Shown here piece after piece: positions 5,514-20,087 of a stretch of 64,000 bases of DNA. The stretch is from an uncultured archaeon (lineage in GTDB: Archaea; Asgardarchaeota; Thorarchaeia; Thorarchaeales; Thorarchaeaceae). The stretch is from positions 160,001-224,000 of the forward strand of contig CAZLEV010000003.1 in the NCBI GenBank assembly GCA_964558645.1, written 5' to 3'. A program made the translations under genes and the position numbers. Numbering within the stretch: the stretch's first letter is position 1; every line of letters begins with the position of its first letter. Under the pieces are notes generated by a model. That model was not told the DNA's origin, made no database searches, and worked only from the letters and a program-made list of their open reading frames with translations.

Positions 5514-7508
5514 ATGCATAGAGTGAGACTTCTATCACTGGTTTTCATAGCTGTTGTGCTCTTGAACACCGTGCCCGGAGCTGTCTGGGCAGGACAGGCT
5601 GTAGAGAGGAGCGAGGAGATTCTACCCGATCCTACGAAGAAGTATGATTTGGACTACATCTACATCTTCTACGACCCCGCGGATGAATTGATGTGTTCCA
5701 TCGCGGAATCTGTCCATGAAGTCCTTAGTTTCAGGCTTCAGAATATAATCATGATTCCAGTGGACTCGTATGACATCCTCAACTTCTATCTCCTTGATGA
5801 ACCGTGGATTGCTGTCTATGCATTACGTTCGAGTCTGAAAAATGTGGTATTCCCCGACAGGAACATGACATGGTACAAGTTCTATCAGGTCCTTTCCGAG
5901 CATAGGTCAACCCGGCACGTTGTTGGCATGGGTAACACGCTATCGATGGCACAGCACATCGGCCCCACAGAGCCCAACATACGTCACACCGATGCAGAGC
6001 AGATTGATGGACTTGTTGTGATCTTGTACAATCTCTGGGAGATTCAGGAGGCACTATCCCAGCGCTCGGAGGCCAGCAGCGATTACAGGAGAGCCCACGA
6101 GGATATTCAGACGATGGCTCTCAAGATATATGGCGATAATTTCGACATGTTCTTCAAACGCACAGTCGACCCTCAGAATCCCATTGGGGAAATCGATGAG
6201 AAGGCTCGCGAAGAGCGAACGAAGAAGATGTGGGAACAACATGCCCCCACCATCGAGAAGACGTACTATCATATGTCTGAAGAAGGTCAGCTTGAGGAGC
6301 TCACCGAAGAGGAGCTCCCTGAAGACTTCACTCCGCCCATCAAACTAAGCAGCGCAGCCGAGCTGGCCGCAGACGATTTTGTTCTTGGTGAGATACCTCT
6401 GCTGTCTGCTCTTCGAGGCCCGATAGGCGAAATTATTGACGTACTCCTCAGCGTATTGGGTGGCTCTGGCTCCACAATCATCTCCGTTCCCAGCGATTTG
6501 ATAGAAACGATTCAGAGTCTCTTCTCTGTCATCAAACCCATCATTGGTATTGTTTCAGACTTTGATGCAGAGTCTCCTCTGAAATCTGTCGTAAACGCTC
6601 TGGCCAATGAGTTTCCATTCATGGCCCAGTTCAAAGACTACCTGAATATCATTCTCAAGGCTCTCTTTAACTTCAGAGGCGATCTTGGAAGCATATTGGA
6701 GATAGTCGGAGATCTGATTGAGGTCCTTCTGCCCGATAGTGTCCCGGATATGCTGAAGAGTTTCATCGGTCAGATGTTGGACGCCGAAGACGGGCTGTGG
6801 AATGCGATAAGCTCCTTGGTTACAGGGGAGAAGGGCGTATTCGATGCAATCTTTAGTTTCTTCACTACGAATACACTGGAGTCACTTCTGAACAAAACGC
6901 TATCTGCAACTATTGGCCTTCTTCCAAGCGAGGTTTCTGCCCTCCTCCCCCGCGTCGTGACTTTCACGAAGTCAATTGTCAGTTTCATGACAAGCGGCAA
7001 CTTCATGGACTTCATCCAGCAAGTGGGCACTGAACTGCTTAGCTCAATACTCTCTGTAGCAGGTCTAGAGGATGTCGTTGACAAGGTCATGTCATTCATC
7101 CACATGGCTATGAGCGTTGTCGACCTTGTAGACAAGTTCGACACAACAAGTCTAATCGATTTGGCAAAGGGCATGCTGGAGGAGATTGTGGGTGGTTCCA
7201 ACATACCTGGTGGTGTCGAGGCTCTGGCGAAAGAGCTGTTCAGTGTCATAAAGACTTTCCAAGAGGGTGCAAGCTCTGACTTCACAGGCTTTGCTTCGCA
7301 AATAGGCAGCATCTTGGAGTCTGGCATCACAGGGGTCTCTGAAGATGTGAGGAACATTGTCCGTGACACTATTTCCCTCGTATCTGGATTCTTCGTCAGT
7401 GGCTTCAACAAGAATCAGCTCCCCGATATTTTCGAGATAGCCCAGGACATTGCGAACGAGTTTCTGGGTTCAGGAGCGACGTTATCGAGGCCTTCAATCA
7501 GGCCCTGA
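5514..7508 (+). CDS. N-terminal part of a giant secreted surface protein (signal peptide plus long amphipathic helical region), probably joined to 7517..11995 by a frameshift
   Basis: ATG at 5514 gives the signal-like MHRVRLLSLVFIAVVLLNTVPGAVWAG. The frame ends in an uncharacteristic tail (TLSRPSIRP) while the -1 frame continues the same helical pattern (DVIEAFNQALKPILGII). Confidence 0.8.
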   Translation: MHRVRLLSLVFIAVVLLNTVPGAVWAGQAVERSEEILPDPTKKYDLDYIYIFYDPADELMCSIAESVHEVLSFRLQNIIMIPVDSYDILNFYLLDEPWIAVYALRSSLKNVVFPDRNMTWYKFYQVLSEHRSTRHVVGMGNTLSMAQHIGPTEPNIRHTDAEQIDGLVVILYNLWEIQEALSQRSEASSDYRRAHEDIQTMALKIYGDNFDMFFKRTVDPQNPIGEIDEKAREERTKKMWEQHAPTIEKTYYHMSEEGQLEELTEEELPEDFTPPIKLSSAAELAADDFVLGEIPLLSALRGPIGEIIDVLLSVLGGSGSTIISVPSDLIETIQSLFSVIKPIIGIVSDFDAESPLKSVVNALANEFPFMAQFKDYLNIILKALFNFRGDLGSILEIVGDLIEVLLPDSVPDMLKSFIGQMLDAEDGLWNAISSLVTGEKGVFDAIFSFFTTNTLESLLNKTLSATIGLLPSEVSALLPRVVTFTKSIVSFMTSGNFMDFIQQVGTELLSSILSVAGLEDVVDKVMSFIHMAMSVVDLVDKFDTTSLIDLAKGMLEEIVGGSNIPGGVEALAKELFSVIKTFQEGASSDFTGFASQIGSILESGITGVSEDVRNIVRDTISLVSGFFVSGFNKNQLPDIFEIAQDIANEFLGSGATLSRPSIRP

Positions 7509-20087: not shown

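Follow-up and report, generated by a model that had tools for sequence, protein, structure and literature searches.

A two-gene module encoding paired giant surface proteins in Asgard archaea, a candidate calcium-stiffened contact unit

The window analysed here, a stretch of 64,000 nucleotides from contig CAZLEV010000003.1 (assembly GCA_964558645.1) of an uncultured archaeon of the Thorarchaeaceae, carries at positions 5514-20087 of its plus strand the coding sequence of two giant putative surface proteins. This raises the question of whether the two proteins belong to one apparatus and, if so, what this apparatus might do. The reading favoured here, with a probability of roughly 0.6, is that the two genes represent an Asgard-specific module whose products, two giant type-I surface proteins, are synthesised together and most likely work as a single surface unit, stiffened by calcium and serving contact or adhesion.

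An initial annotation had described a two-gene operon that fills this region. The large open reading frames (ORFs) on the plus strand are present as described, but there are three of them instead of two: 5514-7508 (664 amino acids (aa), open from 5457/5514), 7517-11995 (1,492 aa) and 11997-20087 (2,696 aa). The first two are a single gene, gene 1, which is split by a frameshift, and the third is gene 2. The tight junction between both genes was described correctly. Gene 1 ends with a TAG codon at 11993-11995, a single base follows, and gene 2 starts with GTG at 11997, while its Shine-Dalgarno sequence GGGAGG (11983..11988, plus strand) lies within the final codons of gene 1. The C-terminal Gly-Gly of gene 1, which is encoded by the Shine-Dalgarno sequence, is kept together with one to three further residues in most orthologues in which gene 1 leads into gene 2, and the predicted translational coupling is conserved among orthologues. 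The single hairpin reported after gene 2 is likewise found, as an 11-bp stem directly 3' of the gene (20087..20114, plus strand; z = -4.3 for the fold of a 111-nucleotide stretch), and a T-run near 20172-20180 is located downstream of this hairpin.

The two genes are inherited together. A pattern-based scan of 185,579 prokaryote species, with one genome per species, was performed with an 11-sequence alignment, a 14-sequence alignment being too divergent, and every record that it returned is labelled either as an Asgard lineage or simply as an (uncultured) archaeon. Judged by record titles, the closest relatives are Thorarchaeota, in agreement with the Asgard host that had been assumed for this DNA, and the titles also name Ca. 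Lokiarchaeum ossiferum, Ca. Harpocratesius repetitus, a species of Promethearchaeum and, for a single record, Hermodarchaeota. When a sample of 301 genomes of the phylum was scanned with a profile of the gene 1 head, i.e. the part between signal peptide and stalk, and with an N-terminal profile of gene 2, the former was found in 88 genomes, the latter in 74 and both in 72; most genomes with one profile only reflect contig fragments. A head match is present on the same contig for 79 of the ~104 gene 2 matches, typically at a distance of ~6.5 kb. In relatives that have both genes on one contig, gene 2 is positioned directly downstream of a single-frame gene 1, apart from one lineage with inverted order. 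On this profile evidence, the pair is strongly co-conserved in Thorarchaeota-, Lokiarchaeia- and Hermodarchaeota-labelled records, and to date all its known occurrences are in Asgard records. Literature searches retrieved no paper describing the gene 1/gene 2 pair.

Five genomes of genus g6 contain gene 1 and gene 2 as one open frame of 4,271-4,901 aa, in which the gene 1 tail passes straight into the signal segment of gene 2. This fused form is predicted to be a protein with three transmembrane helices and with both ectodomains outside. The fused loci are L012 (G022:C28) and those of the genomes G215, G262, G140 and G259. Paralogous versions are paired as well. A shorter pair of ~1,590 and ~1,950 aa with adjacent genes occurs in L029 (G001:C26) and L030 (G010:C4), while the order-inverted paralogous lineage, in which gene 2 precedes gene 1 on the same strand and adjacent to it, is represented by L028 (G039:C23) and by G220:C1, G132:C4 and G191:C49. 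In the shorter paralogue, which was not seen in the genome analysed here, the alpha/beta and beta domains of the head are retained and the helical region is largely missing. In one genome, a second gene-2-like gene of 2,342 aa is found directly downstream of the pair (L014; G023:C621:1190-7969).

Co-expression of the two genes, the other expectation raised for a joint apparatus, is supported by proteome data for L. ossiferum. Its strain B-35 encodes orthologues of gene 1 (UYP47842.1, NEF87_004127) and gene 2 (UYP47841.1, NEF87_004126), both annotated as hypothetical. Supplementary Table 3 of the preprint 10.1101/2025.11.30.690169 ties GNAMCCOK tags to UYP accessions with an offset that is constant on either side of the locus, and this offset identifies the gene 1 orthologue as GNAMCCOK_04161 and the gene 2 orthologue as GNAMCCOK_04160; the mass of 297.6 kDa listed for the latter agrees with its 2,629 aa. 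In the same preprint, both orthologues are quantified in 16 of 16 proteome columns, with mean log2 values of 17.15 and 16.97. Their abundances correlate with r = 0.95 over 15 samples at a nearly constant ratio (difference 0.23 +/- 0.10), and six proteins of similar abundance give r values of 0.18-0.78.

The abundance of both proteins varies little across conditions (standard deviation 0.32-0.35), and this constitutive presence would also suit a general role in the envelope. In such a scenario, the two proteins would be co-expressed yet independent, acting as bulky, calcium-stabilised parts of a coat or canopy that serves spacing or protection. Asgard cells lack an S-layer and show unidentified complex protruding surface proteins and a dense, unordered surface layer (PMC9834061); further genes for large surface proteins are also present in the window. 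A purely structural role of this kind is nevertheless rather unlikely, because the strict pairing, the fusion in one genus, the co-duplication and the adjacency retained after inversion point to a joint function. In addition, 213 of the 301 genomes yield no head match, which would be odd for a basic coat component, and a spacer would not require the degree of conservation seen in the gene 1 head and in the N-terminal propeller of gene 2.

The predicted architecture of gene 1 follows a head-stalk-anchor plan. For both proteins, the signal peptide, C-terminal transmembrane helix and basic tail of the initial annotation could be located. The first ORF of gene 1 (5514..7508, plus strand) contains the signal-peptide-like N-terminus, an alpha/beta domain and the first half of a helical region before it runs into a premature TGA; the start at 5514 matches the conserved n-region of the orthologues. 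The continuation in the -1 frame (7477..11995, plus strand; listed as ORF 7517-11995) contains the remaining helices, a beta domain, a stalk of thrombospondin type-3 (TSP3) repeats, a short beta domain, the transmembrane helix and the tail. The stalk (9047..11371, plus strand) is roughly 800 aa long and consists of DxDxD calcium-binding repeats of the TSP3 type. A motif count gives 31 overlapping matches, corresponding to ~27 distinct loops at aa 511-1285 of the second ORF, close to the ~26 DxDxDG repeats counted before. The repeats belong to the Pfam family TSP3_bac (PF18884), which scores 161 bits against a cut-off of 25 bits (E = 3.5e-48), with eight stretches passing individually. The transmembrane helix (11741..11836, plus strand; aa 1409-1440 of the second ORF, hydropathy 2.95) is conserved in orthologues and is followed by a Lys/Ser-rich tail (11837-11992). 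A Pfam match to 'Protocadherin' spans the transmembrane helix and the basic tail and was judged spurious.

Runs of DxDxDG calcium loops are shared by gene 1 with thrombospondin type-3 repeats and with the Myxococcus proteins CglD and MtsD (NCBIfam NF033765 and NF047639). Gene 1 is not a member of the CglD family: the NF033765 model reaches E = 9.6e-53 but only 179.3 bits against a cut-off of 400 bits, and its best-matching stretch, at model positions 101-254 of 1,124, comprises the repeats only. Gene 1 lacks both a VWA domain and a lipoprotein signal, and its head and transmembrane anchor are unrelated to CglD.

The head comprises ~1,150 aa between signal peptide and stalk. It has no family match in Pfam, its profile gives nothing meaningful against PDB sequences, and only 141 matches are found among 1.84 billion representative proteins; a feature search of the ESM Atlas returned a best score of 0.79, which is uninformative. 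As judged by these searches, the head is a new protein family. A model of the whole head was built with AlphaFold2 (AF2) on the intact orthologue of genome G001, with a mean predicted local distance difference test (pLDDT) score of 73.6 and a predicted TM-score (pTM) of 0.46. In this model, aa ~45-217 (5646..6164, plus strand) form a three-layer alpha/beta domain at a pLDDT of ~90. Structural comparison by VIA yields Z values of 10-11 to flavodoxin-, PurE- and LacI/periplasmic-binding-protein-like folds, with CheY-like folds among the best neighbours, which is a generic match. The following region (6501..8164, plus strand) spans the frameshift and is all-helical, amphipathic and acidic over ~550 aa, according to DSSP assignment of the AF2 model (pLDDT ~70). 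The hydrophobic moment has z > 2 in 16 of its 21 helices, and no Pfam family matches this region. Its weakest profile matches are phage tape-measure and minor-tail proteins (P0110, P0125, P0126, P0131 and P0140), which bear Baculo_PEP_C-like or apolipoprotein-like helical repeats; this resemblance is probably compositional, between amphipathic helices.

The beta domain of the head (8165..8974, plus strand) is predicted to contain ~10 long, strictly amphipathic strands of 13-19 aa with inserted helices, and is modelled by AF2 as a beta-barrel of the outer-membrane type. Folded alone from the sequence of the window with an alignment of 36 sequences, it reaches a pLDDT of 76 and a pTM of 0.61. 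A VIA comparison against 48,161 PDB chains retrieved bacterial outer-membrane barrels for all top 50 positions, with Z values of 8.7-12.3 over ~200 aligned residues, including CymA (Z 12.3), EspP (11.2) and CdiB (10.6) as well as autotransporters, OmpG, TonB-dependent receptors and LptD. Outer-membrane barrels are also returned by Foldseek and by the shape search of the ESM Atlas, and the same barrel class is found among the matches of the full-head G001 model. Across the family, the strands have one strongly hydrophobic and one polar face, with a mean difference of 3.2 Kyte-Doolittle units. The matches to barrels have a root-mean-square deviation of 4-8 A and TM-scores of at most 0.55, there is no profile match, and model confidence is moderate. 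The domain is described here as a predicted barrel-like sheet of long amphipathic strands. What it shares with autotransporter beta-domains, CymA, CdiB and TonB-dependent receptors is the predicted meander of such strands; it differs from them by the absence of sequence similarity, by its position within a 2,160-aa ectodomain and by a host that has a single membrane and lacks the BAM machinery.

The predicted barrel shape and the amphipathic helices suggest that the head could engage a membrane. In such a device, the gene 1 head would bind lipid or insert into another membrane, belonging either to a partner cell or to a protrusion, while gene 2 would provide recognition, allowing tethering or lipid exchange in a manner resembling the TraAB system. 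The uniformity of the structural neighbours, the recurrence of one fold class in separate AF2 runs for two different sequences and the family-wide two-faced strands are in line with this proposal, as is the cryo-electron tomography of L. ossiferum, in which densities connect parts of the protrusion network (PMC9834061). Foldseek with the whole head puts MTP, lipovitellin and ApoB at the top of its list (E = 1.5e-4 to 1e-2), yet with TM-scores of 0.07-0.10 and a root-mean-square deviation of ~35. Like the gene 1 head as predicted, MTP, vitellogenin/lipovitellin and ApoB combine a helical domain with amphipathic beta-sheets that follow it. Large lipid transfer proteins are nevertheless absent from the VIA top 50, and the head gives no signal for Pfam Vitellogenin_N, so that a relation to this protein class is a weak lead.

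A precedent for such a device is provided by TraAB of Myxococcus, which is operonic and forms a 1:1 complex, and in which TraB combines a beta-barrel, TSP3 repeats and an anchor domain (10.1101/2025.04.25.650704). Gene 1 and TraB share this order of barrel or barrel-like domain, TSP3 repeats and anchor, and both belong to operonic pairs of surface proteins. The differences are considerable. The TraB barrel resides in the outer membrane of its own cell and the protein has an OmpA peptidoglycan-binding anchor, whereas gene 1 is anchored by a transmembrane helix in the only membrane, with its barrel-like domain distal. TraA is a PA14-like, Cys-rich lipoprotein, whereas gene 2 encodes a propeller array, and TraAB has no sequence homology to the pair. 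TraAB can be regarded as the nearest working analogue found. The proposal of a membrane-engaging device is further weakened by the moderate quality of the models (pLDDT 74-76, pTM 0.46-0.61) and their shallow alignments of 23-36 sequences, by the loose structural matches, by the occurrence of amphipathic sheets in ordinary soluble folds, and by the lack of any sequence-level tie to a barrel or lipid-transfer family, and it is considered quite unlikely. Its boldest form, in which an archaeon with a single membrane carries a membrane-type amphipathic barrel or lipid-binding head at the tip of a calcium-stiffened stalk, and this head inserts into, or takes lipid from, the membrane of another cell that is recognised by the co-anchored propeller partner, would make the pair an Asgard-specific machine for tethering, exchange or fusion. 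This is an outside chance; if true, it would be a membrane machine at cell-cell contacts, of the kind invoked for syntrophy and eukaryogenesis.

Gene 2 (11997..20087, plus strand) encodes a signal peptide, ~25 blades of the FG-GAP/VCBS type with non-blade inserts, a transmembrane helix (19977-20066; aa 2661-2690) and a short tail consisting of a run of Arg/Lys residues. The protein belongs to the FG-GAP/VCBS propeller superfamily, as it scores 104.7 bits with FG-GAP_3 (cut-off 26.9) and 43.2 bits with FG-GAP (cut-off 22.1), and Pfam matches to the propeller family occur in all five segments into which gene 2 was divided. The blades were counted with a hidden Markov model built from gene 2 itself and form six clusters (aa 130-371, 801-936, 1036-1360, 1569-1631, 1769-2166 and 2266-2608), separated by inserts of ~400 aa. 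The ~28 calcium-loop blades reported earlier overstate the calcium sites, because the canonical Dx[DN]x[DN]G loop is present on only ~15 blades. The N-terminal propeller region (12102..13466, plus strand; alignment A6) serves as a family marker. Mean column identity across orthologues is 54% for the first 455 aa, and whole-length identity to other genera is 36-63%. A PDB sequence search with gene 2 gave nothing meaningful, and an exact look-up of the protein returned no record. Pfam matches to BBS7 and BBS2 extend over roughly one blade each; they are due to the similarity of FG-GAP-type blades and not to BBSome homology. The BBS7 model scores 52 bits over the whole of gene 2 (cut-off 27), with its best stretch at 12600-12870 (aa 204-290), which corresponds to about one blade. 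As in the case of gene 1, no assignment to a well-characterised unrelated family resulted from the Pfam, PDB and profile searches, with the head of gene 1 having no family at all.

The description of gene 2 as integrin-alpha-like is justified for the FG-GAP blades, but not for the rest of the architecture. Like the pair, integrin alpha/beta consists of two type-I proteins that each cross the membrane once, with calcium-binding FG-GAP blades building one of the partners, and adhesion is the function considered for both systems. However, integrin alpha has one 7-bladed propeller on thigh and calf legs, whereas the ~25 blades of gene 2 extend over 2,600 aa as clusters with large inserts, and its tail is a short Arg/Lys run as opposed to the GFFKR type. 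Gene 1 has no features of integrin beta: Pfam matches to VWA, PSI and EGF domains are absent, and its alpha/beta domain lacks the DxSxS motif of the metal-ion-dependent adhesion site. The tails of the pair contain no integrin NPxY-type motifs and are not conserved, and there is no sign of common descent beyond the blade repeat.

A further possibility concerns the delivery of polymorphic toxins, or more generally secreted multidomain proteins, as indicated by the generic labels arCOG07561 and arCOG10338, under which TSP3 and FG-GAP proteins of L. ossiferum are filed (supplementary tables of PMC9834061). The label 'secreted multidomain protein, often with C-terminal toxin domain' does not fit the pair, because both proteins end in a transmembrane helix. 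This helix and the short basic tail are present in all orthologues examined, no toxin domain is found, the C-termini are conserved instead of polymorphic, and downstream there is no small, immunity-like gene, the flanking genes being metabolic. A role as polymorphic toxin was rejected on these grounds, and the secretion scenario as a whole is highly improbable.

For the favoured contact or adhesion unit, the following arrangement can be envisaged. Subunit 1 would be held by its transmembrane helix and would use the TSP3 calcium stalk to carry the head, with its alpha/beta domain, amphipathic helices and barrel-like sheet, while subunit 2, anchored in the same way, would display ~25 FG-GAP/VCBS blades, enough for several propellers. 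The ectodomains of both subunits would associate, and calcium may stiffen both the stalk and the blades. The unit could then bring the cell into contact with surfaces or with partner cells, and the hydrophobic head may be the end that makes this contact or binds lipid.

Several observations bear on this arrangement, most of them against it. The association of the two proteins is deduced from genetic linkage, fusion and co-expression only, and co-expression follows from the location in one operon and is no proof of a complex. Co-folding of gene 2 aa 36-490 with gene 1 aa 28-340, using alignments, gave scores of 0.00, 0.42 and 0.00, which speak neither for nor against binding. In L. ossiferum, the gene 2 orthologue is not enriched in co-immunoprecipitations with Lokiactin (log2 ratio -0.22). 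The cytoplasmic tails are short or unconserved, with the gene 1 tail comprising ~50 aa in Thorarchaeota and a few residues in L. ossiferum, which makes a conserved link to the cytoskeleton unlikely. The pair is lacking from many Asgard genomes, among them all 92 of the largest other family in the sample, which means that it is no universal component of the envelope. Finally, gene 1 is interrupted in the window, and the system may therefore be inactive in this genome.

The interruption maps to 7476..7477 (plus strand), as determined from blastn alignments to orthologues and from three-frame translations. Four orthologues were aligned; relative to those of G001, TEKIR_12S and G016, the window has a 4-nucleotide gap at 7476/7477, and for the G022 orthologue the gap at the same site is 7 nucleotides, giving an identical -1 shift. 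Frame 0 terminates at the TGA codon at 7506-7508, and the -1 frame, which is open from 7367, continues the same helical sequence. The deletion site is not in a homopolymer. All relatives examined read through the position of the break, their gene 1 forming one uninterrupted frame of 2,155-2,221 aa. Programmed -1 frameshifting was rejected, as 7470-7506 contains no slippery heptamer and the frame is intact in all relatives. In comparison with the same-genus orthologue, the dN/dS ratio is ~0.06 for the first part of gene 1 and for gene 2, and for the second part of gene 1 dN is 0.10 with saturated dS. On codon-level comparison, gene 1 and gene 2 are real genes under purifying selection, which is strong in both halves of gene 1 despite the break. 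A second copy of the gene 1 head was not found in this assembly. The intact single frame of the relatives and the purifying selection indicate that the break is either a very recent inactivation, i.e. a fresh pseudogene, or an error of the assembly or of the consensus of the metagenome-assembled genome.

The surroundings of the pair are unrelated to it. A TATA-like box (TTTATAAA; 5297..5304, plus strand), read from the sequence upstream of gene 1, is a possible archaeal promoter element. The flanking genes encode a luciferase-like monooxygenase, a penicillin-amidase family protein and a 2-hydroxyacid dehydrogenase, and are not conserved beside the pair in other genera. The 857-aa protein at 20489-23062, downstream of the pair, belongs to the penicillin-amidase (Ntn hydrolase) family with E = 1.6e-180, and a 354-aa protein with multiple transmembrane segments is encoded on the minus strand at 3178-4242 and has no match in a Pfam search.

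Asgard cells crawl while adhered, and the adhesion molecule is not named (PMC13716822). The gene pair described here is a concrete candidate for the surface and contact molecules of Asgard archaea, none of which is named in PMC9834061 or PMC13716822. This candidacy is based on the conservation of the pair across several Asgard families, on purifying selection and on its presence at a fixed ratio in L. ossiferum cultures. If the prediction for the gene 1 head is confirmed, a barrel of the outer-membrane type would be a surprise in an archaeon. With NEF87_004126 and NEF87_004127, the module provides named targets for study in L. ossiferum.

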